A stretch of DNA of 64,000 bases from Verrucomicrobiota bacterium (GTDB lineage Bacteria > Verrucomicrobiota > Verrucomicrobiia > Limisphaerales > UBA1319). The stretch covers positions 74,041 to 138,040 of the forward strand of contig JAKLFB010000013.1 of the NCBI GenBank assembly GCA_022711435.1, given 5' to 3'. Numbering within the stretch: position 1 is the stretch's first letter; every line of letters starts with the position of its first letter. Below the pieces are notes generated by a model. That model was not told the origin of the DNA. It made no database searches and was given only the letters and a program-made list of their open reading frames with translations. This document shows positions 8,407 to 57,475 of the stretch, piece after piece. Made by a program: the position numbers and the translations under genes.

Positions 8407-11400
8407 CTATTTCCGCAGGCGATAGAATACCTTCGCTTCGGTGGGCACGGTTTCATAGATATTGGGCGCCGTGGGGGTGAGGATGGACCAGGAGGATGCC
8501 GGCAGCTCGCTGGCCCGCTCGAGCTGGCCGGGGCCTTCCCAGGTGATTCGGACCTTGCCGTCCGCCAGGGCCGCCGTCAGCGGCCCCAGCGCCGCCGGAG
8601 CCAGCGCATACTCGACTGCGGCGTCGAAGAGCTTCAGGCCGTCATCGTTGAGGTTGGCGAACGCGGTGTTCTGCAGGAAGATATGAATCCGAAGCGCGGG
8701 CGCCGGCGCGCTGTTCGCGAGGATCGCGCCCTCCTCGTAGACGTAGATGCACGCCTCGCTGGCGTTGCCGGCGATGGTGGCGATGACCTGGGCGTTGGCA
8801 TTGGGGCGGCCTGCCGTGAAGCCCTGTGCACTATTGACCACCGTGCGCACTCCCGCCGCCAAACCCGCTGCCAGCGGATGCGCAGGGCTGACGATGTCGA
8901 TGTCCGTCTGGCTCGGGCGATCGAATCCGTCCGACGAAGCCGCCACCATGGCCATGTCGTCCTGGAGCCCGGCTTCCCAGTTGATGAACGGAACAGCCGT
9001 GTCGCGGAACTTGGCGCCGACATTTCCCGAGCTCACCGAGGAGGAGCAAATGATCAGCTGCTTGCCGTCGCCATGGCTGGTCTGGACCGCCGTGTGGCCG
9101 ACCACGGTCACGTCGCATCCCAGGTCGGCAGCGAGATGATCCCGGACCGCGCGATCGCTCGCGTCGGTGGCCGACGTCCCTGTTGGATTGGCGACGATGA
9201 AGAGCACGTTGGGCGGCGCCTGGCCGATCAAGATGTTCACGGATGGCGAATCGCCGGCGTTGCCCACCGCATCGTAGGCGCGGGCCAACAGGCTCCATCG
9301 GCCATCGGCCGCCCCGGTCCAGGTGAATCCGAACGGCGCGCTGGTGGATTCGCCAATGGACTCGCCGTTGGCGAGGTACTGGACGCGGACAACCCCGACG
9401 TTGTCATCCACGCTCACGGCGATGGGCACATTAGCGCCGGAGGCGAGCGCGGCATTGGCGGACGGGCTGGTGATGGCGACCGTGGGCGGGGTGACGTCGC
9501 CGACGTTGACGGTGACTTCCGCGGTCCGTTCGAGGCCCAGTGTGTCCTTGGCAACGGCCGCCAGCGTGTGCACCCCGGCCGTGGCTTTCGCCCACGATCC
9601 CGCGTACGGGCTGGTCGTGTCCTCGCCGATCTTCACGCCATCAAGGTAGAAGGATACCTTTTCGATCGCGTTGCTGCCCGGAGCCGCCGTGGCAGCGATC
9701 GGAACAGCGTTTCCGACGGAAAAGCTTTGGCCGTTGGTGGGAGATGTGATGCCGGCGGCGGGGGGCGCCGCTCCCAATCCGTAGAAGACAGCGGCATTGA
9801 ACAGCGCCAGCCCGGTCGAGTTGAGCACGCTGAACGTGGTGTCGCGGAAGAAAATGTGCATGCGGCGGGCAGGCGCGGGCGTGAAGCCGTCCGCCAGCAG
9901 TGCGCCGGGCTCGTAGGCGTAGATGCACCCGCGGCTCGGGTTCGAGGCCAGAACGGCAATGGTCTGGCCGCCGGGGCCAGGGTTGCCCGATGTCCAGTTG
10001 TTGGGGCTGCCGGTGATGACCGTGTAGGTGCCCGCTGCCAGCCCTGCCGCCATCGGATGCGACGGATCCACAATGGTCAGGGCCGTCTGGGCGTCGACGT
10101 CGCCAAACTCGCCTGCGACCGACATCAGCATGTCGTCCTGGAGCCCGCTCTCCCAATTGAGGAAGGGGACCGGCGAAAGCTGGAACTTGGTGTTCACATC
10201 CCCCGACGTCACGGTGGATGAGTTTACGATGAGCTGCTTGCCGTCGGCGTCGGTGGTCTGGGCGATGTCCTCATCGAGAACCTGAACGTCCAGCCCGTAT
10301 GTTTTCAGGTGGTCGACGACCATTGCGTCGGTGATCCGATTGACGTGGGTCAAGGCCAGCTCGTCGATCTTGCCGACGAACAGGACGTAGGGCGCGAGGT
10401 CGGTGCCCACGACAATGCTGACGATCTCGGATGCGGTGTTGTTGCCCAGGACGTCATAGGCGCGGGCGACCAGGTCATACCGGCCATCGTCGGGCGCCGT
10501 CCAGGTGAAGCTGAAGGGGGCGGCGGTGGACTCCCCGATCTTCCAGCGGTCGGCGAAATACTCGACGCGCGCGACGCCGGCATCGGATTGGGCGCTGGCG
10601 GTGATGGGGACGCTCGATCCGCTGGCGAACGCGGCGCCCTGGGCTGGGCCTGAAATGGCCACGGTAGGCGGCATCGGCGCCAGGGTGGAGAAGGCCCATT
10701 CGTTGGTGTAGGAGTTGGCGCCCGCGTCGCTGAACACCACCTTCGCCGAGTGGATCGAGGAGTAAGCCAGCGGCGGCGCCGGCTGATAGGCGATCGTTGC
10801 CCCGCCAGAGATCGCCGCGCGCGCGCTCGAGGCGGTGACGTTGGTGCTGTCGAGGAAGAGCTGGATCGAGTCGAGCATCACGGACAGGGTGCTGCGGTTC
10901 ATGATGGTCGCCGAAATGGGCGTGTGAATGCTGGCGGCGGCGCCGGGCGCGGGCTCCTGGACGGTGACCACGGGCCCCAGCGGCGTGACCGGCTCCGAAG
11001 TCGGAACCGCGACCAGGAAGTTCGGGAACACGTTGTTCGCCGCCGACCCGGCCGCCAGCCGGAGGGTCTGCACGCCGCTGAGGTTCAGCACCAGGGCCGC
11101 GGCGGTCCCCAGGTCGCGCAGCGGGATGTATTCGTAGCCCGCGGTGGCGGGGATCTGGAATTCACCCAGCATCTGGATGGCCTGGTTCGGCTGCGTGCGG
11201 TTGCCGGTGACCCGGCTCAAGGTCAGGGTTTGAGCGGCGGTGGCGCGGGCGCGCAGGTAGATCATGTAATTGGTGCTGGCGAACGTGCGGGTGTAATTGA
11301 GCCACTCGCCGGCCTGCACCTGGTTCAGGTCCAGGTCCCAGGCGGCAATGTCCAGATCGAGATACTTCTTGCGGCTCAAATCGCCCGTGGTGGCAGCCCC

Positions 11401-12756
11401 GACGGCGGTGCAGGCGCGATAGCTGTTGATGCAGCTCAGGGTGGTGCAGCCGATGGCCGTCGTGGTGTCGGAATAATCCACGCCGGGGACCGCGTAGGTG
11501 TCGAGATAGCCGACGCCGCTGCCGTGGACGGGAACCTGGGCGGGCGTGAATCCCGATGGCGGCGGATCATCCTGGAAGCCGCCTCCCGAGGCCACGGGCG
11601 GGGGCTCGATATTGCCGGTGGTGCAGAACTTGGTGGCCGGCTGGCTGGCCGCATCGACTCCGTAGTTGTAATCCTCGTTTTCGATCACGACGCCTCCGGC
11701 GCCCATGGTGTCGAAGCTGAAGGTGTCGCGGGTGCCGTGTCCAGCGGTGTCGGTCACAAGAATCTGCACGTTGGTATAGAGGGTGTTGCCTGCCAGACCC
11801 GCGTAGCTGACGGCGCGATCCGTGCCCGAGCCGCTGATGGCGAGGCTCGCGGAAACATCGGCGCCGTTGACGATGAGACGGATGCCGGAGGGCTCGATGC
11901 TGTTGGGGGGGGCTGTCCGCGCGTGGAATGCGATGCCGCTCGAGGGGGGATGCAGCAGGGCCAGGTTGGCCGGCGAGCGTTCCTCGATCCGTGGCGCGGC
12001 GTCGGCGGCGGCGCCGGCCGGCTGGACGACGATGCAATACATGTTGTTCCCGATGTACTGGTGGAAGGCGACCGTTCCGGCCGGGACGTTCTCTTTGCGG
12101 TAGACGGTGCTGTACTGGTTGATGCTCTGGCCGGGGCCGGTGCCGATCCCCTCGCCGCCTTCGTCCATGCCGACCTCGTCGGGCACGTCAACCAGGTTGG
12201 ATCGGTTGATGCCGTTGCCCGTCACCCGGCTCCAGCCGGCGTCGATCAGCCACTGGAGATTGGTGTTGCCCGAAGCCGATATGTTCGGCGGGAGGGTGTT
12301 GGTCGAGCCGTTTCCATAGCGGTTATCGACCAGCACGTAAACATGGGCAGGCTGGGAAAGGGTGACCTCGAGCCGATAAGGCGGGCTGCTGGTCGTCTCG
12401 GGGTTGTTGTTGCTGTCGTTGGCGATCATGATGTACTCGCCGCCAACCAGGTAGCTGGGGATGTCCATGATCCCGCCATACACGCTCAGGAAGCCGTTCC
12501 AGTTGTGGGCCCGGTCGGTGTAGGCGAAGGCGTCCTCGCCGAAGGCCGGCACGGTGTAGTACCGGTTCACCGCCGCCCCGGTCCGCTGGTTCGCCAGCCA
12601 GAAGGTCTGGCCCGTGTATTTCGGGGCCGGCCCGTCGGCGTCGCCTCCGGACTCGACGACATCGACGATGATGGGGGCCGCGATCAGCGGCTGGGCCAGA
12701 GAGGCCATCGCGAGGACGATGGCGATCAAAGAACGATGCTGGGCTGGTTGTTTCAT
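8407..12756 (-). CDS. Large secreted multidomain protein (about 1450 aa) with a signal peptide ([28 protein letters not shown]), several Ig-like domains and an internal super-repeat.
   Basis: The start was set at Met92 of the 1540-aa track ORF, which has a signal peptide. Two homologous units of Ig-like domain plus a ~210-aa module are present: ...VLFVGKIDE...[11 protein letters not shown] and ...[10 protein letters not shown]...[11 protein letters not shown]. Confidence 0.75.
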
Positions 12757-12919
12757 GGACGGGTCCTCGTTGAGGGGTTGCGGATCGGGAAAGCTTGGGC
12801 TGCGCTGAAACGACAGATCTCCGGCGGGCCGATAAAACAGGCCCACACTCGCCCGTAAGCCGGCTGGATCATACGATGGGCCCAGCGTTACATGATCGGG
12901 GTCCCGTGTCAAACAAATC

Positions 12920-12930
12920 TGGTATGACCA
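12920..12930. promoter_or_regulatory. Candidate GntR/FadR-type operator TGGTATGACCA (TGGT-N3-ACCA), copy 1 of a 15-bp direct repeat AATCTGGTATGACCA.
   Basis: The palindromic half-sites TGGT/ACCA have a 3-nt spacer. The site lies in the divergent intergenic region between the giant secreted protein gene and the GntR gene. Confidence 0.5.
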
Positions 12931-12971
12931 GAGGAGTCGTGCTTGACTCGGGGCGGGATCCGCGCGCAATC

Positions 12972-12982
12972 TGGTATGACCA
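12972..12982. promoter_or_regulatory. Candidate GntR/FadR-type operator TGGTATGACCA, copy 2 (52 bp downstream of copy 1).
   Basis: It is identical to copy 1, including the flanking AATC. Confidence 0.5.
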
Positions 12983-12983
12983 C

Positions 12984-13916
12984 ATGCCAGCAGTGGACAA
13001 AGGTATCGAAGCGCGTTCTGCGGCGGCATCGGCGGGCCGGAGCCGCCGGGCGCGGCGGCTGTCCGAACCCGCGAATGGCCCGGCGCGTCCGATGCGGGGG
13101 GCCGCGGATGGCCGCCCCCGCCGCTCGGACGACGTGCTGCGCCGGCTGCTGAGCCTCATCTTCGAGGGGCGGCTCAGCCCGGGGGCGCGCCTGCCCTCGG
13201 AGCGGGAGCTCTCGCAGAGGCTGTCGGTGAGCCGCACCACGCTGCGGGACGCCATGAACCGGCTCGAGGCGCGCGGGTTCGTCGAGCGCCGGGCCAAGAG
13301 CGGCAATTATGTCTGCACGGCCCTGCCCCCGGCGGTGCGCGATCCCATCCAGGAGGCCGTGGGCGCCCAGGTGGCCCGCCTGGCGGATGTCGTCGCCATC
13401 CGCAAGGTGCTCGAGCTTTGGGCGGTCGAGCAGGCTGTCCAGCAACGCCAGCCAGCCCTGCTCCGAGCGATGGAGAAGCGCATCGCCGCCATGCGGGCCG
13501 CCATGCGCTTCCGAACCGACGAACAGTTCGAGCGGTACCGCGGCGCCGACCTCGAGTTCCATCAGATGCTCGCGCGAATGACCTGCAACCCGATCTATGT
13601 GCACCTGATCGACTTTCTGCACCGGCTCATCCGCGACTCGATCGCCATCAGCCGCGAGCTGGTGGCGGGCGATTACGGCCAACGGAACCTCCGGGCCCAC
13701 GAGCGGATCCGCGCTGCCATCGCCCGGCAGGATGCCCCCGGGGCGCGCCAGGCAATGCTCGATCACTTCTCCCTCGTCGAGCAGCGCCTGGGCGCAAGCA
13801 GAAGCCAGCCTGCAGCCCCGGCGGATTCGAGGCCGTCCCGGCATGGCAGGGCGATGCCCCGCCGCCTTGAGGGCGGCCCGCACCGATCCCCGCCAACGTC
13901 CCTTTCCCACTCCTGA
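12984..13916 (+). CDS. GntR family transcriptional regulator (FadR/FCD subfamily).
   Basis: The wHTH LSPGARLPSERELSQRLSVSRTTLRDAMNRLEARGFVERRAKSGNYV is followed by a helical FCD-like C-terminal domain. The start is uncertain: ATG 12984 and ATG 13092 are alternatives, and both lie downstream of the operators. Confidence 0.8.
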   Translation: MPAVDKGIEARSAAASAGRSRRARRLSEPANGPARPMRGAADGRPRRSDDVLRRLLSLIFEGRLSPGARLPSERELSQRLSVSRTTLRDAMNRLEARGFVERRAKSGNYVCTALPPAVRDPIQEAVGAQVARLADVVAIRKVLELWAVEQAVQQRQPALLRAMEKRIAAMRAAMRFRTDEQFERYRGADLEFHQMLARMTCNPIYVHLIDFLHRLIRDSIAISRELVAGDYGQRNLRAHERIRAAIARQDAPGARQAMLDHFSLVEQRLGASRSQPAAPADSRPSRHGRAMPRRLEGGPHRSPPTSLSHS

Positions 13917-13917
13917 T

Positions 13918-14967
13918 ATGACCCGAACGATCAACCCGTTCGATGTGGCCACCTGGTGGCGGCCGTTCCGCTCCGATACGCGCCGGTTCCAGGAGGTGTT
14001 TCCGCACCACGCCGAGCACGCGAGCCTGCTGCGCAGCAGCGAGACGCTCGCCTACCTGATCCGCAGTTTCACCGTCTACGAGATGACCTGCGCGGCCCTG
14101 GGCCATCCGGGCGGCAGCCTGTCCGAGTCCGACTTTCTGGCGGTCCTCTTCAATCACATCCTCCGCTTCGACGCGAAGCATCCGCAATGGCCCCAGCGCG
14201 ATGCGTTCTACCTTTCGAAGTGCCACGCCTGCCCCGCGCTCTACGCGGCGCTCGCGCTGTTCGGCTATTTCCCGCTCCGAGATCTCGAGCGATACGGCGC
14301 CTGGGATTCGCACCTGGAGAGCCACCCCGACAGCACGCGCACGCCGGGCATCGAGATTTCGGGCGGGTCGCTGGGCCAGATTCCGGGCGTGGCGGTGGGG
14401 CGCGCCCTGGGCATCCGGCGGCTCGGTCCGGACCATGCGGACCGCATGGTGTATGTGTTGCTGGGCGACGGCGAGTGCAACGAGGGCTCGGTGTGGGAAG
14501 CGTTCATGGCGGCCGGGCATTACCGGCTGGACAACCTGGTCTTCATCATTGACTACAACAAGGTCATGGCCAAGGGATTCGTCCACGCCGACATGTCGCT
14601 CGAGCCGCTGGCGGACAAGCTGGCCGCCTTCAACCTCGAGCCCCGCGTCCTCCGGAACGGGCACGACGTGGCCGAGCTGGTCGACCTCGGCAACCATCTC
14701 GCCGTGCAGCGGCATGGCAGGCCCGCCGCCGTCGTGCTCGACACGATCAAGGGCAAGCAGGTCGCCTGCTGCCAGTACAATCCCAACTGGCACACGAGCG
14801 CGCCCCGGGACGCCGCCACCGCCCAAGCCTGGCTGCGCGAGCTCTGGGAACGCGATGGGCGGCGCCTCGGGATCCCCGAGGAGTTCGCGGCCGCCTTGGG
14901 CCAGGCCATCCGCATCGTTCCTCCGCAGCACGCCAACCCGGATCGCATCACCGAAAAGCAGGCCTGA
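13918..14967 (+). CDS. Transketolase, N-terminal (TPP-binding) subunit of a split transketolase.
   Basis: The TPP motif region is GDGECNEGSVWEA. The segments HPGGSLSESDFL and SKCHACPALYAALAL resemble the N-terminal half of transketolase. The start is 1 nt after the GntR stop. Confidence 0.9.
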   Translation: MTRTINPFDVATWWRPFRSDTRRFQEVFPHHAEHASLLRSSETLAYLIRSFTVYEMTCAALGHPGGSLSESDFLAVLFNHILRFDAKHPQWPQRDAFYLSKCHACPALYAALALFGYFPLRDLERYGAWDSHLESHPDSTRTPGIEISGGSLGQIPGVAVGRALGIRRLGPDHADRMVYVLLGDGECNEGSVWEAFMAAGHYRLDNLVFIIDYNKVMAKGFVHADMSLEPLADKLAAFNLEPRVLRNGHDVAELVDLGNHLAVQRHGRPAAVVLDTIKGKQVACCQYNPNWHTSAPRDAATAQAWLRELWERDGRRLGIPEEFAAALGQAIRIVPPQHANPDRITEKQA

Positions 14968-14980
14968 AACCGGATTTCCC

Positions 14981-15952
14981 ATGGCACAATTCACCATCCC
15001 GCCCCGCGAGGCCACCCAGGAGATGCGCTACCAGATGGGTTATGCGCTGGCGGATCTGGCCTTCGAGTTCCCCCAGATCGTGGCGCTCGACGGCGATCTG
15101 CGGACCAGCTCCGGCCTTCACATCTTCGAGCACTTCCATCCCGACAAGCTCCTCAAGGCTGGCATCGCCGAGCAGAACATGATCAGCATGGCGGCCGGCC
15201 TGAGCCAGGAAGGGTTCATCCCGTTTCCGTGCACGTTCGACGCGTTCTGCCGGCGGTTCATGGACCAGCTCTACGTATCCGTCGCCTACAGCCATGCCAA
15301 CGTGAAGGTCCTGGGCGCCTACCCGGGCCTCTATACCGGCAAAGCGGGCGCAACCCATCAGAGCGACAAGGAGCTGGGGCTGCTGCTTCGCATCCCGAAC
15401 CTGCGCGTGATCGAGCCCGGATGCCATCTCGAGATGCGCCAGGCATTGCGGGTGGCGGTGGAAACGCCCGGGCCGTTCTACTTCCGCATCGTGCGCTGCG
15501 AGGTGGCCGAGAACGAGCTGGCCGCCGGCTACCAGTTTCGATTGGGCCGGGGTGTCACCGTGCTGGACAACGGCTGCGACGTCGGCCTGGTGAGCACCAG
15601 CCTGATGGTCAAGACGGCCAAGCTGGCGGCCGCCAAGCTCGAGCGCAAAGGCATCCGCGTCCGGCTGGATCATCACCCGAGCCTGAAGCCGTTCGATCGC
15701 GATCTGCTCTACGACCTGGCGGCCCGGACGCCCGCGATCGTCACGCTCGAAAACCACTGCACCAGCGGCGGCCTCTTCTCGCTCGTGGCCGAGGCGCTCG
15801 CCGCCAAGGGCGCCCCCGTCCGCGTCGGCGCCATCGGGACCGACCCTGACGATTTCATCCACACCGGCCATGTCAACGACCTCATGGCCCGCTACCGAAT
15901 GACCTCGGACGACGTGGTGCGAAAGGTCGAGGAGATGCTCGCAAAGCCATGA
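14981..15952 (+). CDS. Transketolase, C-terminal (pyrimidine-binding) subunit.
   Basis: The segments AYALADLAFEFPQIVALDGDL and GIAEQNMISMAAGLSQEGFIPF fit this subunit, and a C-terminal transketolase domain is present. Confidence 0.9.
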   Translation: MAQFTIPPREATQEMRYQMGYALADLAFEFPQIVALDGDLRTSSGLHIFEHFHPDKLLKAGIAEQNMISMAAGLSQEGFIPFPCTFDAFCRRFMDQLYVSVAYSHANVKVLGAYPGLYTGKAGATHQSDKELGLLLRIPNLRVIEPGCHLEMRQALRVAVETPGPFYFRIVRCEVAENELAAGYQFRLGRGVTVLDNGCDVGLVSTSLMVKTAKLAAAKLERKGIRVRLDHHPSLKPFDRDLLYDLAARTPAIVTLENHCTSGGLFSLVAEALAAKGAPVRVGAIGTDPDDFIHTGHVNDLMARYRMTSDDVVRKVEEMLAKP

Positions 15953-16809
15953 ATCCCCGCCCTCTGATTCACGATCCCGTCCGCCTTTTCGGCGATTACA
16001 TGGCCGTCACCGGCGTGCCCGCGCTCGAGCCCGAACCCGATCTCCCTTTCTCCGGCAAGAAGCTCGGCGTGGTCAACGGCGCCTCCTGGACCAGCCTCTG
16101 GTCGACTTACTTCGCCCGGCGCGAGCTGCCCGGCGTGCAGGTGGTCAACGCGGGCAACGAGGGCGTCCAGCTCCACTTCATGCGCGCCCACCGCGAGGGG
16201 CGGCCCTGTCCGCCCCCGATCAATATCGAGCTCTTCTGCCGCTACGCGCGCGACCTGTTCGACCTCGCCCGAGTCGACGCGATCCTCATCTCCTGCTCGA
16301 CGATGAACCGTGCGTTTGCCCGGGTGCAATCGGATCTGGCCCCGCTAGGCGTGCCCGTGGTCCAGATCGACGAGGCCATGATGGAGGAGGCGGTGCGGCG
16401 GTGCGGCCGGATCCTCATCATCGCCACTCACGGTCCGACCGTCAAGAGCACGCAAAGCCTGATCGAGGAAACGGCCGCCCGGCTGCGGCTGCCGGTCGAG
16501 TTCACCGGCGCCACGGTCGAAGACGCGTTCGAGCTGCTCGGCGCGGGCCGAATCGCCGACCACAACCGCGCGATCGCCGACGCCATCCGCCAGGCGCAGC
16601 GCCGTGAGCGGGTCGACATCGTCGTTCTGGCGCAGATGTCCATGTCGGTCTTTGCCTTCAGCCATCCCGATCCGGAGAAGGATTTCGGGGTCAAGGTGCT
16701 CAACAGCGGCGAGACGGGCTTTCGACGCGCCGGCGAGGTCCTTCTCGCCAAAAACCGGGAAGCTGAGGATCGGATCCAACCGCCCGGTCCGGGGGCCGGG
16801 CCTCACTGA
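15949..16809 (+). CDS. Asp/Glu/hydantoin racemase superfamily protein (arylmalonate decarboxylase / maleate isomerase-like), a putative isomerase.
   Basis: Two pseudo-symmetric Cys/Ser-containing motifs are present (ILISCSTM and VVLAQMSMS). It overlaps the transketolase C-subunit stop (ATGA). Confidence 0.55.
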   Translation: MNPRPLIHDPVRLFGDYMAVTGVPALEPEPDLPFSGKKLGVVNGASWTSLWSTYFARRELPGVQVVNAGNEGVQLHFMRAHREGRPCPPPINIELFCRYARDLFDLARVDAILISCSTMNRAFARVQSDLAPLGVPVVQIDEAMMEEAVRRCGRILIIATHGPTVKSTQSLIEETAARLRLPVEFTGATVEDAFELLGAGRIADHNRAIADAIRQAQRRERVDIVVLAQMSMSVFAFSHPDPEKDFGVKVLNSGETGFRRAGEVLLAKNREAEDRIQPPGPGAGPH

Positions 16810-18080
16810 ACTCGGAGCCATTTCGGCCGGCCGAAGACCAGCGCGATCACCCAGGCAAACGTCGCCAGCCCTGCCAGGACGAAGAACACGGGATTGAAAT
16901 CGGCGGTTTCCTTGGTGAACAGCCCCACCCGCTGGATGACAAATGCCGTGAAGCCCGTCTCGATGGCGCCGACCAGGGCTGCCACGGTCGCAACCTGCCT
17001 CCGGTCCACATCCTGCTTGAAGGCGTGCTGGTTTCCCAGGAACGCCCCGATGCCGCACACGTAGAGGCAGAGAAACACGACGCTGGCGTTGATCGACGAG
17101 AGCCGGGGCACGACGAGGACCGACAGCATCAGCGCATACGCGCAAGTGATGACCACCTTGCGGGACGCGAGGACTGGCAGACCGCGGCGGCTGAGCCAGA
17201 GGACGGCCGCGCCGCCTGCCCACAGGCCGACGTCCTGCATGAAGTAGATCGCCGATAGCTTGAAAGCCAGCGACTGGTCGTAGGGATGATCCAGTTGCTG
17301 CGTGAAGAATGACGGAAACCACTGGGTGGCGAAATAGAGCGAGGGGATGATCCCCAGACCCATGAGCGCAACCCCCCAGAATCCGGGCTGACGGAGCACG
17401 TGGACGAGGCTGGCGCCCCAGCCGGCATGCCAGCCCTGGGGCATGCCCCCCGCCGTGGCCGCCAGGCTATCCGTCTGCCAGCGGGACGCCCGCCGCTCCG
17501 GCTGCCGAAAGATCAGCAGCCACGGCGCCAACCACAGAAACCCCAGCGCGCCGGCCAGCAGAAACGAATACTGCCAGTGATGGCGGGTCGAGAAGTAGAT
17601 CGCGACGGGCGGAGCAGCCAGGGTGGCCAGAAAAGCGCCGCTGGCGAAAACGCCCGACGCCAGGCTGCGCTCCTCGGCGGGGAAGATGCGGCTGATGATC
17701 ATCAGGCAGATCGGGAAGTTGGCCGCCTCCCACACGCCCAGGAGCATGCGCAGCCACAGGATGTGCTCGTAGCTCTTGGCCAGCCCGACCAGCATCGTGC
17801 TCGCCGACCACCCCGCCACCATGATCGGAAAGAAACGGCGGACGTTGCGAAACCGATCCACCACAAAGCCGAAGAACAGATGGCAGAACGCATACGAGTA
17901 GATGAACGCCGAAAGCAGGTTGCCCCGCTGCGCGTTGTCCAGACCGAACTGCCTGGCGATGGGATCCATCGTCGTGCCGAGCATCTGGCGGTCGAAGTAG
18001 TTGAGGAACGTGGCCAGAAAGAGCGTCCCCAACACGAACCACCGCCACTGCCGGTCGAAAAACGAATGCGTGGTGTTCAT
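16803..18080 (-). CDS. MFS transporter (sugar-acid/hexuronate-like ACS family).
   Basis: It has 12 predicted transmembrane segments. The MFS motif region is LNYFDRQMLGTTMDPIARQFGL. The start was set at MNTTHSFFDRQW (Met47 of the track ORF). Confidence 0.85.
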   Translation of the reverse strand: MNTTHSFFDRQWRWFVLGTLFLATFLNYFDRQMLGTTMDPIARQFGLDNAQRGNLLSAFIYSYAFCHLFFGFVVDRFRNVRRFFPIMVAGWSASTMLVGLAKSYEHILWLRMLLGVWEAANFPICLMIISRIFPAEERSLASGVFASGAFLATLAAPPVAIYFSTRHHWQYSFLLAGALGFLWLAPWLLIFRQPERRASRWQTDSLAATAGGMPQGWHAGWGASLVHVLRQPGFWGVALMGLGIIPSLYFATQWFPSFFTQQLDHPYDQSLAFKLSAIYFMQDVGLWAGGAAVLWLSRRGLPVLASRKVVITCAYALMLSVLVVPRLSSINASVVFLCLYVCGIGAFLGNQHAFKQDVDRRQVATVAALVGAIETGFTAFVIQRVGLFTKETADFNPVFFVLAGLATFAWVIALVFGRPKWLRVQ

Positions 18081-18084
18081 CGTC

Positions 18085-19671
18085 TCATTCCGCCGATCGG
18101 CGCAAACGGAGGATCCAATCGTCCCCATGGGAGGGGGGCTCCAACACCTGGCCCGTGCGCACCGCGCCGCCAGCCTCGAGCCCGGACGGCTGCCGCGCAT
18201 TCGTCCACGTTGCCTCATACGGCCCGCCTTCGAGCGTCACGATGACTGGCGCTGTGCGCTCCAGGTAAATCAGATACTCCCTGCCCGGGTCGGCAAGGCA
18301 GAAGGCATGGCGGCCGGATACCGCGCCTGGACACGGCTGCAGATGGGCGAAGGGCAGGGCGGCGCAGAGATCCCAGGCCAGGCGGACGGCGTCGTGCCGG
18401 TTCTGCCGGCAATCCTTCGGGTCCATCGTCCCGCTGTACCCGCTCGATGAGTCGCCGTCGTTGTCCGCGAACACCAGGGAAGCCGCCGAGAAATGGATCA
18501 CGATGGCGTTCTTCCGCAGGTCGTCGTCCGTGTAATCACGCCGGATGGATCGGATGTGGTTGATGTTGCCCGACCAAAGCGTTTCCTGGGCGAGGAGCGG
18601 CTTTCGAGGATGATGGTTGCGGAGCAGGATTGCGGCGAGAGCGGCGCGGTCGACGGTTTTCGGCCCCTGCAGGGTTCCGTAGGTCAGCCACGGCTCGTCG
18701 AGGAACAGGTCGTTGCCGGTCGGGTTATGGATGGAGATCGGCTTGGCGAAGACGTTCAGGCGCTGGATATCGCTGCCCAGCCGGTTCACCTGATCCCGGG
18801 TGAGATAGGCGTTGTTGGGGAGCAGCGGCTCCGGGCCGGCGACGTTCAGCAACAGGTTCCAGTAAGCTCCAAGCCGCGCATACGTGTATCGAAGGTAAAG
18901 CGCCTGATCGGCCGGGTTGTCGGGATAGGACGAGGAACGCCCGAAGAACCCGGCGAACGGATACGCGAGGATTCGGCGCGAGGCGAGGTCGTCGAGGACC
19001 GCTTCCATGGATTGGTATTCAGCGGCGCTGAGGGGCCAGAGTTTCGGCGTGTTCCAGCCGCGGCCCCGGCCGGCGCTGTTGCGGTTGAGGTAATGGCTGG
19101 CGACGGAGAGCAGGTTGTAGCCCTGGCGCTGCGCCCAATCGAGAAACGCGGAGCGCCGTTCGCCGTCGGCCGGGTTGGCCGGATCGTCCCAGTTCCGAGC
19201 GAAGAACCGGTCGCCCACATGCAGCCCGCGTACCAGGACGGCATCCCCCCCGCGATAGCCGAACCAGGCCGGGTTTGACTCGTCGGGGGCGATCATGCCG
19301 GGCAAATCGGAGGGGACGCAGAGGAACGCGCCTTGGGCGGCTGGCGGGCCGTCGGAGAACCGCGCTTCGTATCTCCACTCCCCCGGCTGGTCGGGCATGA
19401 ACCGCATTCGCCACGTTTGCCCTCCGTCGTAGAATCCCCAGAACCGGACCGTGCCCCCGTCGGGGCGCGTGAAGACAGCATCGAGCGAGACGTCACGATA
19501 AGGGTTGGCGTAGGGTCTCGGATTGACGATTGCCGTCTCGAAGCGGCCCCAGAGGGGCGCCTGCACGCGGATGGGGAGAATCGCCCTCTCGAGGACCCGG
19601 GGCAGAGTGTCTCCGCGGGATGCCGGGGCGGCCAGCAGCGCGATCGCGGTGAGCACAAGAAGTGGTTTCAT
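18085..19671 (-). CDS. Secreted putative glycoside hydrolase (DUF5060/DUF4038-like; compare GH140). The family assignment is tentative.
   Basis: It has a signal peptide (MKPLLVLTAIALLAAPASRG). An N-terminal beta-sandwich-like region is followed by a TIM-barrel-like region. The family was called from memory of domain architecture only. Confidence 0.45.
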   Translation of the reverse strand: MKPLLVLTAIALLAAPASRGDTLPRVLERAILPIRVQAPLWGRFETAIVNPRPYANPYRDVSLDAVFTRPDGGTVRFWGFYDGGQTWRMRFMPDQPGEWRYEARFSDGPPAAQGAFLCVPSDLPGMIAPDESNPAWFGYRGGDAVLVRGLHVGDRFFARNWDDPANPADGERRSAFLDWAQRQGYNLLSVASHYLNRNSAGRGRGWNTPKLWPLSAAEYQSMEAVLDDLASRRILAYPFAGFFGRSSSYPDNPADQALYLRYTYARLGAYWNLLLNVAGPEPLLPNNAYLTRDQVNRLGSDIQRLNVFAKPISIHNPTGNDLFLDEPWLTYGTLQGPKTVDRAALAAILLRNHHPRKPLLAQETLWSGNINHIRSIRRDYTDDDLRKNAIVIHFSAASLVFADNDGDSSSGYSGTMDPKDCRQNRHDAVRLAWDLCAALPFAHLQPCPGAVSGRHAFCLADPGREYLIYLERTAPVIVTLEGGPYEATWTNARQPSGLEAGGAVRTGQVLEPPSHGDDWILRLRRSAE

Positions 19672-19761
19672 CGTCGTGCCGTTGGAGAAGGGATCATTGG
19701 CCATGAGCCCGCGAATGTCCAGCGCGGCGTCCGGCCATGCATCCCGCGAATGACCCGAACG

Positions 19762-22455
19762 CTATGGCTGAAGATTGAAAAAGGCTGCCGCTTCGAGCGC
19801 GCGATAGCGTTCCGGATGGCAGGTGAGGATGACAATCTGGAGCGCGCCCGCAGATTCCTCGAGGAGGGTGAGCAGCCGGGCCAGGCGGCCGGTATCGGTC
19901 GCGTTGAGCACGTCGTCGAGGACCACGAGCTGGCGTTCGTTCTGGGCGAGGACCTGGCCCAGCGCCAGGCGAGTGATGAGAAACAGCTGCTCCTGCTCGC
20001 CGCCCGAGAGGTTGTCCAGCTCAACCGCTTCGCCCAGGGCTTTGGGCTCAATGCCGGCTGGCACAAACTCGCCGGTCAGGCGAACGGGGCCGAGACGCGG
20101 TCCGGCAACGCGCTCGAGCATTCGGCTGGCCGTGCGCTCGACCGGCGCGGCCACGGCAGCGACGGCGGCCGCTTTGCACGATGCCACGGTGTCGTGCAGG
20201 AGTCGGAGGGCGTCCATGCGAAGCTTCTCACGCCGGATTCGGCCCGTCAGATCGGCCAGTCTCTCCTCGCAGGCCGACAGCTTCGAGTAGGCGCCCGCGG
20301 CGGCCAGGCTCTGCAGCCGCCCTTCAGCCTTCTTCTCATCATCCCGGGCGGCGGCTTCTGCTGCCTCCAGCGCCCGCAACTGAAGCTCCATCTTGTCCAG
20401 GGACTTCTGCGGGTCATCGCCGATTTCTTCGAGCTTGCGCTTGCACTCCTCGGCTTGAGCGCGGGCTGCTTCCCAAGCCATCGAAGCCTCCTGCCGGGCG
20501 GTTTGGCGGTCATGGTCCGACAAGCCGTCCCGGGTGAAATCGGATCGGCGCCGGTCGGCCGCCTCGAGAGCCAGGCGCGCACCCTTGAGCGCGGCTGCGG
20601 TCTCAGTATGGCGTTTCTCGACCCCCTGCGCGCCAGCTTGGGCCTCGTCGAAAGCATCCTCAGCCTGCACCACGGCGGTCTCGATTGCCTTGCGCTGCTC
20701 CTCGAGAGCGGATTGCAGAACGCTCAGGGCCGGCGGCTGGTCTTTCCATGCAGGGAACCGTCCGGTTCGCTCCAGGATGCGGGCATCGAGTTCGGCCAGA
20801 TCGCCTTGCAGCTCCTCCGTGGTGTCATCGCCCAGGAGCTCCCCGATTTGGCGCTCGAGAACCTCGATCTTCTGGTCGAGCTCCTTTGCCTGGTCGCGAA
20901 CGAGCTGGAGCCGGTCCGGGTCCTGGGTTCCGTAGGGTTGGGTTAGCTTTGCCAGTTTCCTGTCCGCCTCAGCCATTTCCCCTCGCAGCGCATCCACGTC
21001 CATCTCGGGGCCGGCCGCGTGAATGCTGCCGAACCCCTCGATTTCGATGCTCACCTCGGGAGAGCCGGCAAACGTCGCGGCCTCCCCTGCAGAGATCGCT
21101 CTGGTTTCCTCCGGGGATTTCCTGGTCGCGGTGGCCGCCCGATGCGGACGAACTGTCAGACGAATGAGCGATGCCTGAAGAGCGGCTTCCGCCTTTCCCC
21201 TGGCCGCGAGATGCTTTCGGACATCGCGAATGGCTCGATCGTCCGGCGCCACCAAGACCGCGCGCGATTGTCTCTCTGCCGTGAAACCGGTCTGGAGCTG
21301 CTGGAGCTTCTCAAGCCGGGCGGCCAGGGCCTGCCGGGCCTTCGTGTCGGCCAGGAACGCCCGGGCATCCTCGACTTCGGCGGTGCGCTGGCTCAGAGAG
21401 GCGCGCCTCGACCGGGCTTCCTCGCGTTGGCGGCGGCGTTCATCCGCACGCGCGCTGGCGGTTTTCAGCTCGGCAGCCAGCTCGCCCAGCAGCGCCTCGT
21501 CCCGCTCGATTTGAGCCTTCAAGCCGGCGGCCTCCCGCCGCGCGTCAGCGATCAGCTCGATGGTCCGTCCAATGGACTCGTGCCTCTCCTTGGCGGTTTG
21601 TTCCGTCTGGCGTTTCTGCTGCAAGTCGCTTTGGAGCCGTTGAAAAGACTCGGCCAGCTTTCGCGTCTGGCCCAGCGGCTCTCGGAGCGCGTCGGCTTCG
21701 CGCCGCGCCTGGGCGCGCCGTTGTCGGGCATCCTCGACGGCGCCGGCAGCCTCCTCGAAGCTCTGCTGTTGCGCCAGGAGCTCGTGCCGCTCCATGGCCA
21801 TCTCGGCGAGCTGCGATTCCATGGCCAGGATCGGAGCCGCATCTTTGCCCGCGCGCGGCTTGCCGCTCCTGGTAAACAAGGACAGGTATTGCTCCTCGAG
21901 CAGCTCTTCGAGCCGAGTGCCGCTTTCCCCGGTCAGCTGGACCCCCAGGGCGGCGCGAAGGTTCTCCGAAACGCTCGACGACACGAAGCTGAGGCTCAAA
22001 GCGCCTTGCGGCGCCCAGAGGACCTGAGCCAAACCCCAGTGCTCCTGCTTCGACAGGCCGCGTCCCGGCGTGTCCCTCGCAGCCAGAATCTCGCGTAGCT
22101 CCGAATCCGCATTGCGGCCATCCGCCAGCGGCACGAACTCGCCGTCTTCGAGCCGGGACAGCCGCGCGCTGGGGCTGTCCAGAAACACTTTTTCGATCCG
22201 GTAGCGGACGCATCCCTGGGAGAACTCGACCATCACCTGGGGCGCCAGCGAACGCCCCCACGGGCGCACGGCTTCGATTTCCTTGCCTGTCACAAGGTGC
22301 GCGTCGAACAGCGCCCGCCGCATTGCCTCGAACAAGGACGATTTCCCCGTCCCGTTCGGAGCATGGATGACATTCAGGCCCTCGACAAAAGGGCCCACCT
22401 CAGTCGGCTGGAGAAGGCTCCGCCAATGCGTGACACGCAGGTTGTGCAGGATCAT
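19762..22455 (-). CDS. sbcC: SbcC/Rad50-family DNA double-strand-break repair ATPase.
   Basis: The N-terminal Walker A is HAPNGTGKSSLFEAM. A long coiled coil follows. The C-terminus carries LSGGEQEQLFLITRLAL ... QLVVLDDVLNATD (signature, Walker B, D-loop). Confidence 0.85.
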   Translation of the reverse strand: MILHNLRVTHWRSLLQPTEVGPFVEGLNVIHAPNGTGKSSLFEAMRRALFDAHLVTGKEIEAVRPWGRSLAPQVMVEFSQGCVRYRIEKVFLDSPSARLSRLEDGEFVPLADGRNADSELREILAARDTPGRGLSKQEHWGLAQVLWAPQGALSLSFVSSSVSENLRAALGVQLTGESGTRLEELLEEQYLSLFTRSGKPRAGKDAAPILAMESQLAEMAMERHELLAQQQSFEEAAGAVEDARQRRAQARREADALREPLGQTRKLAESFQRLQSDLQQKRQTEQTAKERHESIGRTIELIADARREAAGLKAQIERDEALLGELAAELKTASARADERRRQREEARSRRASLSQRTAEVEDARAFLADTKARQALAARLEKLQQLQTGFTAERQSRAVLVAPDDRAIRDVRKHLAARGKAEAALQASLIRLTVRPHRAATATRKSPEETRAISAGEAATFAGSPEVSIEIEGFGSIHAAGPEMDVDALRGEMAEADRKLAKLTQPYGTQDPDRLQLVRDQAKELDQKIEVLERQIGELLGDDTTEELQGDLAELDARILERTGRFPAWKDQPPALSVLQSALEEQRKAIETAVVQAEDAFDEAQAGAQGVEKRHTETAAALKGARLALEAADRRRSDFTRDGLSDHDRQTARQEASMAWEAARAQAEECKRKLEEIGDDPQKSLDKMELQLRALEAAEAAARDDEKKAEGRLQSLAAAGAYSKLSACEERLADLTGRIRREKLRMDALRLLHDTVASCKAAAVAAVAAPVERTASRMLERVAGPRLGPVRLTGEFVPAGIEPKALGEAVELDNLSGGEQEQLFLITRLALGQVLAQNERQLVVLDDVLNATDTGRLARLLTLLEESAGALQIVILTCHPERYRALEAAAFFNLQP

Positions 22456-23564
22456 TCGCGGCTCCTTTCGTGGAGGTCGAACAGCTGCAGGAGCGCCTGC
22501 GATGCCGTGGCCTGCTGGTCCGTGCCGGATGGCTGCGACGCCAAGGCGCGCAGCTTCCGCGCCGCATCCTGGAAGGTCCCGGCGGGCAGGGATTCGATCC
22601 AGCCCTCGCCGTCCGGCGCCGGCTTCAATCCTTCCGCCTCGAGCGCGCCAAACAAGAATCGCGTTGCCAGCAGCTCCTCAAGCCGCCTCAGCGCGCCGCG
22701 ATCCTCGGGAAAGAGCATCCCATCCAGGCGCATGCGGACCAGCGTCGATTCTGGCTGGGCGATCTCGGCCAATTGCTGAACAAGGGATTCCAGCGTGCAC
22801 GGCTGGGCCACCGAATGCTCGACGGTCCGCCAGTCCAGCCCCCCGGTCCTTATCGAGGTCAAGGCGGGCGGCCCGCCCCGGCGGGTGATCTCCACCAGGA
22901 TCGCGTTGCCGCTGTCCCGCTCGCCGAACCCGGTGGTTTCGTGGGTGCCGGAATACGCCATGCGGCACTCCCCGTTTGGATCCTCGTAGCGGGCCAACGA
23001 ATGCCAGTGCCCCAGGGCGAGGTAGTCCAGGCCCCGGCGATTCGCGGTATCGCGAGGTATCGGGTAGTCCGGCTCGCCGCTGGGGATCCCCTCGACATTT
23101 CCGTGCGCCAGCCCGATGGCTGGCTTCGCCGCCGCGCGCCCGTTGATCCACGACGTTGGATCTTTGGTCGAGTATTTCTCCCGCAACGGACAAGGAAACA
23201 GCACACACGTCTCCAGCTCGATCGGCTCGCTCCTCGTGCAGACGGTGATGTTCCCCGCCTCCGCCCACACGGGGTGCTCCCACACCGAGCCTGGGCTCAG
23301 CGGATCATGGTTCCCTGGAATGATGTAAACCGGTCCCGGAAATCGGCGCAGGATTTCACCGGCCTTCCGCACCAGAAGCCGGTCCACGGCGTTGTCCTCG
23401 AAGACGTCGCCGGCCAGCAGCAGCATTTCGGCGCCGTGGTCGCGCGCCGCCTGAACCACCCGCTGCGCCGCGGCCAGCCGCTCCTCCCGCACGCGCTCCG
23501 CCATCTTGCCGGCCGACTCGGCGCGCATCCCGATCTGCCAGTCCGCTGTGTGAATGATCTTCAT
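22452..23564 (-). CDS. sbcD: SbcD/Mre11-family nuclease (calcineurin-like metallophosphoesterase).
   Basis: The MKIIHTADWQIG motif is present, with GDVFED and GNHD phosphoesterase motifs. It overlaps sbcC by 4 nt. Confidence 0.85.
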   Translation of the reverse strand: MKIIHTADWQIGMRAESAGKMAERVREERLAAAQRVVQAARDHGAEMLLLAGDVFEDNAVDRLLVRKAGEILRRFPGPVYIIPGNHDPLSPGSVWEHPVWAEAGNITVCTRSEPIELETCVLFPCPLREKYSTKDPTSWINGRAAAKPAIGLAHGNVEGIPSGEPDYPIPRDTANRRGLDYLALGHWHSLARYEDPNGECRMAYSGTHETTGFGERDSGNAILVEITRRGGPPALTSIRTGGLDWRTVEHSVAQPCTLESLVQQLAEIAQPESTLVRMRLDGMLFPEDRGALRRLEELLATRFLFGALEAEGLKPAPDGEGWIESLPAGTFQDAARKLRALASQPSGTDQQATASQALLQLFDLHERSRE

Positions 23565-23686
23565 GGAGCCGTGCCCCCCCAACAGACCGGACGCGGCCCG
23601 ATCCGGGCAGGAGCATGTTGTCGCGGAAATTTAGCGAACCCGGTCCGGGATGGCCATACAAAATCCAAAGTGCATCAAACAATGGG

Positions 23687-24796: not shown

Positions 24797-24862
24797 ATCC
24801 CGCGGGCGACTTCTCCACACCCGGCGGGCGATGTCAAGGAAGCGTCGCGGGGAGCGTCCCGG

Positions 24863-25231: not shown

Positions 25232-25338
25232 ATCTGCCTTTTCGATAACCGGGCTGGTCACTGAGCCGGGGCGCACGGGCAGCCTCGATGGCGGCCGTGC
25301 GACAGCATCAATATGACGAAAAGGGCGGGTGAATTCCA

Positions 25339-27146: not shown

Positions 27147-27195
27147 AGCTGAGGGTATATTGGACTGCAAACGGCAAGAAATCCAGCGCGGCTTT

Positions 27196-28722: not shown

Positions 28723-28821
28723 AGCCATGGTTGCATGGTGTTTGCGCAGGCCCAAGGATGGGCGACAGACGATAGCGTGTCGATCCTTTTCAGGTCGCGG
28801 GAGCGGGGGCGGGTGGGGGAT

Positions 28822-30342: not shown

Positions 30343-30364
30343 GGCCGATCATGTTCAACGCTCT

Positions 30365-57452: not shown

Positions 57453-57475
57453 GTTGGCTCAATCGAAATTTGCGA

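Follow-up and report, generated by a model that had tools for sequence, protein, structure and literature searches.

Gene content and organization of the locus

A predicted sugar utilization locus was analyzed within a 64,000-nucleotide stretch of a Verrucomicrobiota genome (contig JAKLFB010000013.1 of GenBank assembly GCA_022711435.1, positions 74,041 to 138,040 of the forward strand), referred to here as the window. The locus encodes a split transketolase and an Asp/Glu-racemase-fold protein, designated RACE, together with a regulator, a transporter, and a secreted hydrolase. As the G+C content of the window is approximately 66%, long spurious open reading frames (ORFs) are common; genes were called by combining a frame choice based on G+C at third codon positions with ORF translations and a check of start codons, and domains were assigned by Pfam and NCBIfam profile searches. 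All six genes named in the original prediction, which had been made from the sequence alone, were present within positions 13092 to 19671, and their assignments were confirmed by Pfam, except that the hydrolase gave no DUF4038 match of its own.

Four of the genes lie on the forward strand. The first (positions 13092 to 13916, with an alternative ATG start at 12984) encodes a GntR regulator of the FadR subfamily, comprising a winged helix-turn-helix and an FCD domain (GntR, 70 bits; FCD, 76 bits). It is followed by the genes for the two transketolase subunits. TK-N (13918 to 14967; 349 amino acids) is the N-terminal subunit with the thiamine diphosphate (ThDP)-binding PP domain (PF00456 Transketolase_N, 135 bits), and TK-C (14981 to 15952; 323 amino acids) is the C-terminal subunit with the Pyr and C domains (PF02779 Transket_pyr, 96 bits; PF02780 Transketolase_C, 63 bits). 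RACE (15949 to 16809; 286 amino acids) matched PF01177 Asp_Glu_race with 50.4 bits against a cutoff of 31. The intervals between these genes are 1 nt, 13 nt, and a 4-nt overlap of the TK-C stop with the RACE start, and the four genes thus make up a single operon.

The remaining two genes lie on the reverse strand. They encode a major facilitator superfamily (MFS) transporter of the anion:cation symporter (ACS) family (16803 to 18080; 425 amino acids; PF07690 MFS_1, 135 bits) and a secreted glycoside hydrolase (18085 to 19671, with an alternative start at 19704; 528 amino acids) whose N-terminal part matched PF16586 DUF5060 with 76 bits. As only 4 nt separate them, they form a second, convergent operon. 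The RACE and MFS genes share 7 nt at their 3' ends (16803 to 16809), which leaves no space for separate terminators, and the C-terminal tail of the window RACE is approximately 15 residues longer than in its homologues. Database copies of these exact proteins come from Verrucomicrobiota metagenome-assembled genomes and carry generic names.

Conservation of the cassette across genomes

To place the locus in a wider context, a pattern search for RACE was run against one genome per GTDB species (185,579 genomes). This returned 158 stretches encoding such a protein, from which 80 loci were kept. Neighborhoods comprised all ORFs within 10 kb, which were grouped by BLASTP and annotated from cluster representatives, and gene content was counted in those 49 loci in which RACE was flanked by 4 kb or more on either side. 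The RACE homologues of the kept loci were 51 to 92% identical, the closest (92%) being in Verrucomicrobiota. Loci were found in Verrucomicrobiota, Planctomycetota, Bacteroidota, Kiritimatiellae, Spirochaetota, Chloroflexota, Sumerlaeota, Acidobacteriota (Bryobacteraceae), Bacillota, Clostridia, Limnochordia, and other groups, and in a cultured strain, Mariniflexile sp. HMF6888.

RACE is immediately preceded by the genes for TK-C and TK-N (median offsets, -966 and -1915 nt), which are encoded on the same strand as RACE in 70 of 73 and 65 of 67 cases, respectively. TK-N was present in 44 and TK-C in 45 of the 49 loci. A hydrolase of the DUF5060/DUF4038-like or GH5-like type (clan GH-A) was found in 36 loci and a transporter in 37 (ACS-type MFS in 25, GntP permease in 5, and ATP-binding cassette [ABC] components in 10); a GntR/FCD regulator occurred in 20, a sulfatase in 10, and a divergent transaldolase in 5. 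The hydrolase gene lies between the transketolase and RACE genes in loci L003, L009, L042, and L024, and in four loci RACE has a hydrolase neighbor though the transketolase is absent. Three RACE homologues looked up independently gave the same picture by precomputed Pfam labels. The clustering is far beyond chance, and the locus is not a chance neighborhood. Relative to the window proteins, median identity was 62% for RACE, 54% for MFS, 47% for TK-N, and 39% for TK-C, making RACE the most conserved component of the cassette across phyla.

Accessory glycan genes differ by lineage and include sulfatases (some of them within the operon), sialate-O-acetylesterase-like genes, and members of GH29, GH2, GH4, GH116, and GH127; the source glycans are probably diverse and decorated. 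A secreted carbon-nitrogen hydrolase (PF00795, 110 to 115 bits) is encoded in five cassettes (L020, L072, L010, L021, and L046), in one case fused to a DUF4038-like glycosidase (L020, 6165 to 8453) and in another located between TK-N and TK-C (L072, 8054 to 9013), which suggests an amide or carbamoyl decoration of the substrate glycan in those species. In two Chloroflexota cassettes, genes resembling URO-D (L074, 12239 to 13372; L075, 5455 to 6675) directly follow a DUF1537 kinase gene, and a gene for an MtaA/CmuA-like (URO-D family) methyltransferase at 33623 to 35284 on the forward strand of the window encodes a product 38 to 39% identical to theirs. These genes hint at O-methylated sugars in some lineages. 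A possible pattern in which the DUF1537 kinase and the transaldolase replace one another as mutually exclusive alternatives was not retained, as the absence of co-occurrence (0 against approximately 1.9 expected) was not significant.

Substrate site of the transketolase

The transketolase pair was compared with AptA and AptB of the apiose cluster of Escherichia coli ST131 (SE15), using the locus tags given in PMC13001218. TK-N was 38% identical to AptA (149 bits) and TK-C 28% identical to AptB (114 bits). Scores were higher against the housekeeping split transketolase of Carboxydothermus, at 214 bits for TK-N against 6YAK and 184 bits for TK-C against 6YAJ; this bona fide split transketolase was also the best PDB match of the pair.

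Substrate sites were compared in a MAFFT alignment of approximately 70 family members with E. coli TktA, whose numbering is used here. The ThDP- and ketol-binding residues H26, H66, H100, D155, N185, H261, E411, and H473 are all kept in the window pair and in at least 60 family members, and three of the four phosphate-site residues are kept as well (R358, S385, and R520 or Lys). The substrate loop of the window TK-C, GAYPGLYTGKAGATHQ, is altered at three positions, with H461 replaced by Tyr, E468 by Lys, and D469 by Ala. Across the family, position 461 is Tyr in 69 of 73 sequences, position 468 is Arg or Lys in 60 of 72, and position 469 is Ala (n = 55) or Cys (n = 14) in 69 of 73. In contrast, 6YAJ and human transketolase retain the canonical SH..GEDG with H461, E468, and D469. 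AptB has A358, N461, P468, L469, and G520, where the family has R, Y, K/R, A/C, and R/K.

In established transketolase enzymology, Asp469 forms a hydrogen bond with the 2-hydroxyl of an acceptor aldose, equivalent to the 4-hydroxyl of the donor ketose. Its loss, combined with a new positive charge at the adjoining position, would fit a substrate that lacks a conventional hydroxyl there and possibly carries an anionic group. The alignment supports a dedicated catabolic enzyme rather than one of the pentose phosphate pathway, as had been proposed from the association with a transporter and a glycosidase, and the replacement of all three loop residues and the recurrence of the cassette across phyla both bear this proposal out. 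When the subunits were set against the canonical and Apt classes, as that proposal had suggested, they resembled neither, being unlike housekeeping enzymes at the substrate loop and unlike AptA/AptB, an identification that the comparison does not support. Y461, K/R468, and A/C469 appear instead to constitute a new transketolase specificity signature.

A single-cysteine site in RACE

The AlphaFold model of RACE (pLDDT, 80) has a pseudo-symmetric, two-domain fold, for which Foldseek retrieved hydantoin, aspartate, and glutamate racemases at 13 to 20% identity, with a probability of 1.00 to 2EQ5, 5ELL, 3IST, and 1JFL. Cys116, within the motif LISCSTMNR at the start of helix 117-133, is the sole invariant Cys in 19 aligned members and aligns with the first catalytic Cys of glutamate racemase (C-[ST]-T motif). 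At the place of the second Cys, after strand 224-227, the family has V-L-A-Q-[LM]-S-M-S, in which Gln229 is invariant in the 19 sequences. Motif, spacing, and secondary structure suggest that Gln229 occupies the site of the second catalytic Cys. RACE thus shares Pfam family, fold, and first Cys motif with the Asp/Glu/hydantoin racemase superfamily, which includes arylmalonate decarboxylase (AMDase) and maleate isomerase, but it differs in having Gln for the second Cys and in its low identity to every solved member. With Cys116 only and Gln at the second site, it is unlikely to be a two-base racemase.

Enzymes of one-base type catalyze 1,2-proton shifts (as in RpiB, with Cys), decarboxylation (as in the one-Cys AMDase), or beta-elimination. 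In profile searches, the best PDB matches of RACE were the AMDase-like 2DGD and maleate isomerase; as E-values were 0.016 or worse, placement of RACE in a specific racemase subfamily at the sequence level was dropped. In minimal cassettes RACE is the sole enzyme between the glycosidase and the transketolase. Since a glycosidase frees a reducing sugar and a transketolase needs a 1-hydroxy-2-ketose, parsimony favors RACE, the sole candidate in the locus, as the isomerase, the role for which the original prediction had also put it forward. We know of no precedent for a RACE-type fold beside a transketolase in sugar catabolism.

RACE has more than 1,200 database relatives, the best 120 of which are 64 to 99% identical. 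In a library clustered at 50% identity, the family comprised approximately five full-length representatives, separated by a score gap from a broad sister family of approximately 220 residues. A RACE paralogue of 222 amino acids with the same Cys and Gln motifs is encoded in a second module containing the same hydrolase family (L089, 10001 to 20402), beside genes for an MFS transporter, a Gfo/Idh/MocA dehydrogenase, an IolO-like epimerase, an isocitrate-dehydrogenase-family enzyme, an OtnK-like DUF1537 kinase, and DUF6282. In a Bryobacteraceae locus (L061), the transketolase/RACE cassette and this second module stand side by side. The short paralogue shows that the fold was recruited more than once to acid-sugar metabolism, and the content of its module keeps a decarboxylase reading of RACE alive.

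Evidence for an acidic substrate

The best NCBIfam match of the MFS transporter was TIGR00893, the D-galactonate transporter subfamily, and the best PDB match was DgoT (6E9N; E-value, 4.5e-27). Its residues D30, R31, and E118 align with D46, R47, and E133 of DgoT, i.e., the Asp-Arg pair of transmembrane helix 1 and the Glu of transmembrane helix 4, which the DgoT structure paper is said to identify as proton-coupling and carboxylate-binding residues. The transporter is also 26% identical to E. coli ExuT. Where related loci have a GntP permease as an alternative, it is approximately 30% identical to the E. coli fructuronate transporter.

The regulator has the domain pair of the FadR subfamily (PF00392 GntR and PF07729 FCD), and its top NCBIfam matches were NanR, PdhR, LldR, GlcC, and UxuR, all of which are carboxylate sensors and all of which scored below cutoff; its identity to E. 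coli UxuR is approximately 30%. A DUF1537 "four-carbon acid sugar kinase" (PF07005 and PF17042) is encoded beside the transketolase and RACE genes in 19 of the 49 related loci. Pathways for acid sugars employing the DUF1537 kinases DtnK, DenK, OtnK, and OiaK were reportedly described by Zhang et al. in 2016 and Carter et al. in 2018. Against NCBIfam models of the DtnK/OtnK/OiaK type (NF047819, NF043035, and NF042436), the kinases of the cassettes reached 45 to 83 bits, compared with cutoffs of 350 to 700, and hence form a separate, new subfamily. They also differ from those pathways in that no PdxA2, OtnC, OtnI, or RuBisCO-like partner accompanies them. Taken from the types of transporter, regulator, and kinase, the substrate is probably an anionic, carboxylate-bearing sugar.

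The ACS-type MFS transporter, GntP permease, and FadR-type GntR regulator recall the toolkit of the Ashwell hexuronate pathway (ExuT, GntP, and ExuR/UxuR in E. coli). However, no homologue of UxaC, UxaA, UxuA, or UxuB was found in any of the 85 neighborhoods, and the cassette therefore stands alone. Were the substrate a uronate-like sugar, the transketolase and RACE would replace the classical route rather than feed into it.

Operator-like sites upstream of the transketolase operon

A pattern search identified two identical copies of TCTGGTATGACCA on the forward strand at 12918 to 12930 and, 52 bp downstream, 12970 to 12982, in the divergent intergenic region upstream of the GntR gene. Their core, TGGT-N3-ACCA, is as in operators of FadR-subfamily GntR regulators. 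No further match to TCTGGTATGACCA was found in the 64-kb window, even at two mismatches, and the core occurs nowhere else in it. The same 11-mer flanks the GntR gene in a locus from the closest relative (L006, Verrucomicrobiota) and in one from Sumerlaeota (L048), and binding of the regulator at these sites appears plausible. The core was rejected as a general operator of all loci, since 24 sites were found against approximately 39 expected and the exact 11-mer was confined to L006 and L048. Control of the whole locus by GntR had been proposed; it is plausible for the transketolase operon only, because operator-like sites precede that operon and not the one encoding the hydrolase and MFS transporter. 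Just upstream of the hydrolase start, a direct repeat, CATTCGCGGG, is present in two copies (19705 to 19760). Having no relation to the GntR motif, this repeat may serve to control the hydrolase-MFS operon separately.

The secreted hydrolase

The hydrolase comprises a signal peptide, a DUF5060 beta-sandwich, a (beta/alpha)8 catalytic domain of clan GH-A-like type, and a C-terminal beta-sandwich. Its catalytic part gave no match to PF13204 (DUF4038/"Apiosidase") at an E-value of 0.01 or less, whereas about half of its homologues of 52 to 67% identity carry both PF16586 and PF13204 in precomputed annotations. A sequence search against solved structures returned 4N0R as the only match. In Foldseek comparisons, the AlphaFold model (pLDDT, 88) was likewise closest to 4N0R (TM-score, 0.67 to 0.70), followed by the GH5 mannanase ManDH5 (0.65), both with E-values of approximately 1e-22 to 1e-24; the GH140 structures 5MSY and 8T9W gave TM-scores of 0.56 to 0.71 with E-values of approximately 1e-17. 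Across apiosidases and the related structures 3KZS and 4QFU, TM-scores ranged from 0.54 to 0.71, and all structures were at 13 to 16% identity.

Two Glu residues, E292 following beta4 and E374 within beta7, are kept without exception in 28 hydrolase homologues and occupy clan GH-A positions, the strand assignments being read from the secondary structure of the model rather than from a superposition. The corresponding pair in the GH140 enzyme BT_1012 is Asp187/Glu284, and Asp is found at the first site in 82% of PF13204 members. Given the invariant Glu pair, as opposed to the Asp/Glu of BT_1012, the protein is likely an active retaining glycosidase of a distinct, uncharacterized family. It shares a (beta/alpha)8 clan GH-A barrel and beta-sandwich domains with BT_1012 (3KZS/5MSY) and with the DUF5060-plus-DUF4038 protein BVU_0362 (4N0R), although its identity to BT_1012 is low, its catalytic pair differs, and ManDH5 is equally similar. 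The proposed description as DUF4038/GH140-like therefore appears to hold solely as a distant fold relationship, in keeping with the PF13204 domains of its homologues and with its own lack of a match to that profile. Nothing ties the hydrolase specifically to apiose.

Flanking genes and other features of the window

To the left of the locus, and divergent from the GntR operon, the reverse strand encodes an internally duplicated, secreted protein of 1,448 amino acids containing three Big_7 Ig-like domains (8407 to 12753), a DUF1559/prepilin-type protein with N-terminal methylation signature (7629 to 8576), and a sulfatase (6129 to 7580). Big_7 proteins adjoin a hydrolase homologue in L089 as well, and that of the window possibly has a role in binding the target glycan. 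On the right lies sbcCD (19762 to 23630), and the flanking genes on both sides were judged unrelated to the cluster. Beyond sbcCD, a run on the reverse strand (23855 to 30348) encodes a xylose-isomerase-like TIM-barrel protein with weak matches to hydroxypyruvate and 2-oxo-tetronate isomerases, BioA, an FGGY kinase (27196 to 28821), and a second sulfatase (28822 to 30348); these four genes showed no sign of belonging to the cassette.

As predicted, no sugar kinase was found by Pfam inside the 13092 to 19671 cluster, and an FGGY kinase does lie 10 kb away. This kinase is XylB (TIGR01312, 548 bits; cutoff, 380), and with its position beside bioA and a sulfatase it was ruled out as a missing kinase of the pathway. 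Neither a second transketolase nor a transaldolase, a GH5/DUF4038b paralogue, or a DUF1537 kinase (by tblastn) was found in the 64-kb window.

A dnaA gene with Bac_DnaA, DnaA_N, and Bac_DnaA_C domains lies at 36104 to 37498 on the forward strand, and GC skew stays around zero or below over approximately the first 24 kb and is strongly positive thereafter; the window therefore probably adjoins the chromosomal replication origin. A low-GC patch at 56000 to 58000 (0.53 compared with approximately 0.66) may be recently acquired DNA. It contains an ORF of 302 amino acids (56544 to 57452, forward strand) that ends in a PEP-CTERM-like sorting signal (VPEP...hydrophobic...RRFRG).

Comparison with known transketolase pathways

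The D-apiose pathway (Carter et al., 2018, as summarized in PMC13001218) consists of an apiose isomerase or a reductase pair, the FGGY kinase AplK, and the apulose-4-phosphate transketolase AptA/AptB. The cassette resembles this pathway in using a split transketolase for the committed C-C cleavage, in the order of isomerase followed by transketolase, in the absence of the canonical Asp469, and in a possible link to glycosidases of the DUF4038/GH140 type. However, the E. coli SE15 cluster has an apiose isomerase or oxidoreductase pair, an FGGY apulose kinase, and an RbsB-type ABC importer, none of which is found in the cassette, and the cassette has neither a TIM-barrel isomerase nor a short-chain dehydrogenase/reductase pair, while its uptake and regulation are of the anion type. 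The proposal that the locus salvages apiose or side chains of rhamnogalacturonan II (RG-II) is not upheld, given the low identity to AptA/AptB, the different substrate-site residues, the lack of an apiose isomerase or apulose kinase, and the anion-type transport.

Sulfoglycolysis of the sulfo-TK type proceeds through the isomerase SqwI, the transketolase SqwGH, and the reductase SqwF. Here too a catabolic split transketolase acts on an anionic sugar, xylulose-5-phosphate feeds central metabolism, and one isomerase and one transketolase could act twice, on a C6 and then a C4 compound. The cassette is set apart by gene content, as it has no sulfoquinovosidase, reductase, or exporter; its candidate isomerase has the Asp/Glu-racemase fold, and the anion is likely a carboxylate.

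Proposed pathway and alternative explanations

We propose, at what we judge to be an even chance, that the locus forms a self-contained cassette for the catabolism of an anionic sugar, centered on a specialized transketolase and distinct from the AptAB pathway. In such a pathway, the secreted DUF5060/DUF4038-like clan GH-A glycosidase would free the sugar from a glycan, often a sulfated one in marine relatives, and the DgoT/ExuT-like proton symporter would take it up. RACE, using a single catalytic Cys, would convert the free reducing sugar by one-base proton transfer into a 1-hydroxy-2-keto (ketol) compound. The split transketolase would then transfer the C1-C2 ketol unit to glyceraldehyde-3-phosphate, giving xylulose-5-phosphate and a shorter aldehyde-acid, which would enter central metabolism. 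The FadR-type GntR regulator would act through the two TGGT-N3-ACCA sites to repress its own operon, and binding of the acid sugar or of an intermediate to its FCD domain would lift this repression. Gene content, operon structure, conservation of the cassette, the altered transketolase loop, the single-Cys site, and the anion-transporter residues are observed features, whereas the class of substrate, the order of steps, the isomerase role of RACE, and the mode of regulation are inferences.

The preferred version of this scheme, and the one that draws on the largest share of the evidence, is a "carboxy" analogue of sulfo-TK, in which a uronic-type C6 acid would be isomerized and cleaved, the resulting C4 aldehyde-acid would be isomerized by the same enzyme to 3-oxo-tetronate, and a second cleavage would yield glyoxylate. 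The carboxylate of 3-oxo-tetronate would sit exactly at the replaced Asp469. DUF1537 kinases accept 3-oxo-tetronate, and in a minority of related loci such a kinase would provide a side exit. We regard this specific sequence, from C6 acid through 3-oxo-tetronate to glyoxylate, as doubtful.

Several observations weigh against the proposal of an acidic-sugar pathway of this kind. The only characterized relatives of the hydrolase family are GH140 apiosidases and a mannanase, not uronidases, and to our knowledge an aldose-ketose isomerase with the Asp/Glu-racemase fold is without precedent. If a normal hexuronate-derived ketose were the first donor, loss of Asp469 would be of no obvious help. The divergent transaldolase (six loci) and a glycerol-1-phosphate-dehydrogenase-like enzyme (three loci) are at least as compatible with a C3 ketone product as with glyoxylate. 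No DUF1537 kinase was found by tblastn in the 64 kb of the window, and just 39% of the related loci encode such a kinase. The hydrolase-MFS operon is not preceded by the operator motif, and the association of the genes was measured from RACE outwards only.

These transaldolase and dehydrogenase-like genes make the strongest remaining case for a C3 product, and with it for a pathway that would handle an apiose-type branched-chain sugar with non-orthologous parts, which we consider distinctly unlikely. Here RACE would form a tertiary-alcohol ketose by isomerizing either apiose or one of its acidic relatives, for example aceric acid, and the transketolase would cleave this ketose as AptAB cleaves apulose-4-phosphate, leaving a C3/C4 ketone such as dihydroxyacetone or its phosphate, hydroxypyruvate, or 2-keto-3-hydroxybutyrate. 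A product of the dihydroxyacetone or hydroxypyruvate type could be processed by the DUF1537 kinase, the divergent protein of the transaldolase/fructose-6-phosphate aldolase family, and the glycerol-1-phosphate-dehydrogenase-like iron-dependent alcohol dehydrogenase, and the DUF1537 family phosphorylates HOCH2-CO-R acids, including 3-oxo-isoapionate. The hydrolases fall within the DUF5060/PF13204 "apiosidase-like" group, AptB too is without Asp469 (it has Leu), and a few loci encode RGL11-like proteins or members of GH127, the family of aceric-acid hydrolases. Yet the pair scores lower against AptA and AptB than against a housekeeping split transketolase, the substrate-site residues of AptB differ at 358, 461, 468, 469, and 520, and neither the window cluster nor the 85 neighborhoods contained an apiose isomerase, an apulose kinase, or an RbsB-type ABC system. 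Transport and regulation of the organic-anion type argue against neutral apiose, and the Glu/Glu pair of the hydrolase departs from Asp187/Glu284 of BT_1012. RG-II is not sulfated, whereas sulfatases are encoded inside several of the operons, and no Bacteroides or Prevotella RG-II degrader was among the 80 kept loci. The distant ApnL-like protein ("apionate lactonase") that adjoins one hydrolase homologue (L087) was discarded as proof of apiose, as it reached 87 bits against a cutoff of 750 and covered no more than the C-terminal part of the model. A different role for RACE within an acidic-sugar pathway is unlikely, though less so: it could be an AMDase-like decarboxylase of a beta-keto acid sugar, possibly acting after a DUF1537 kinase, or a 4-O beta-eliminase of a uronate, and the deoxy or shortened ketose so formed would then be cleaved by the transketolase. 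The one-Cys arrangement mirrors AMDase, the best profile matches were AMDase-like 2DGD and maleate isomerase, and a 4-deoxy donor would account for the loss of Asp469. The module of the RACE paralogue, which encodes a Gfo/Idh/MocA dehydrogenase, DUF6282, an epimerase resembling IolO, a kinase resembling OtnK, and an enzyme of the isocitrate dehydrogenase family, covers all steps of an oxidative route of the tetronate or apionate type apart from the decarboxylase, and MtaA-like methyltransferase and carbon-nitrogen hydrolase genes in some loci hint at substituted sugars. Minimal cassettes, however, would be left without an enzyme that converts the freed reducing sugar to a ketol, no consistent polysaccharide lyase or dehydrogenase was found in the related loci, and the DUF1537 kinase is missing from 61% of loci as well as from the window.

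That the anion is a sulfo or sulfate group rather than a carboxylate, the locus then encoding a sulfo-TK-type pathway for a sulfoquinovose-like sugar, seems very improbable. Sulfo-TK is a precedent for a catabolic transketolase acting twice on an anionic sugar, the features of the anion transporter and transketolase would suit a sulfo group equally, and sulfatases flank the window locus (6129 to 7580 and 28822 to 30348) and sit inside related operons. Sulfatases are nevertheless present in only 10 of the 49 loci, where they suggest removal of sulfate ahead of uptake, and DUF1537 kinases and GntP permeases belong to carboxylate-sugar systems. Neither the cluster nor its recurrent neighbors included a GH31 sulfoquinovosidase, a YihS/SqwI-type isomerase, a sulfoacetaldehyde reductase, or an isethionate or sulfite exporter. 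It is hardly credible that the pair is simply the housekeeping split transketolase of the organism, with unrelated neighbors. The catalytic residues are all intact, the closest PDB entry is a genuine split transketolase, and the 64-kb window has no second transketolase; however, H461, E468, and D469 are all replaced, whereas 6YAJ keeps all three, a tight operon with RACE is kept across many phyla, and the start codons are translationally coupled to a catabolic regulator and to RACE. The rarity of the cassette (158 candidate stretches in 185,579 species genomes) likewise argues against a housekeeping role.

Implications

The locus is best described as encoding a dedicated transketolase-dependent sugar pathway with an unprecedented partner enzyme, a new transketolase signature, and a wide distribution. 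In its fullest form, to which we assign somewhat less than an even chance, it would represent an undescribed transketolase-dependent route for acidic sugars, a carboxylate counterpart of sulfo-TK, with the first sugar enzyme of the Asp/Glu-racemase fold (a single-Cys, ketol-forming isomerase) and a new transketolase specificity class. A search of full-text literature found no publication linking these families or this gene combination. Should the substrate prove to be an ordinary uronate or apiose, the finding would shrink to a non-orthologous replacement of known steps. The hypothesis is directly testable, as the cassette is small (five or six genes) and comes with a candidate operator, a candidate ligand-sensing regulator, and a cultured carrier.

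If correct, the proposal would assign functions for the first time to the RACE family and its sister family of approximately 220 residues, as well as to the divergent DUF1537 kinase subfamily and the DUF5060/DUF4038-like glycosidases that are common in loci of Bacteroidota and of the Planctomycetes-Verrucomicrobia-Chlamydiae (PVC) group. It would also explain how acid sugars are used after DUF5060/DUF4038-type glycosidases have acted, without the classical uronate pathways, in PVC bacteria, Bacteroidota, Chloroflexota, and others. We are aware of just two catabolic pathways with a dedicated transketolase, namely the apiose route and sulfo-TK. Another one, spread across many phyla of polysaccharide degraders, would be a new carbon route in marine sediment, soil, and gut, by which an acidic sugar would be converted to xylulose-5-phosphate and a small aldehyde-acid in those communities.

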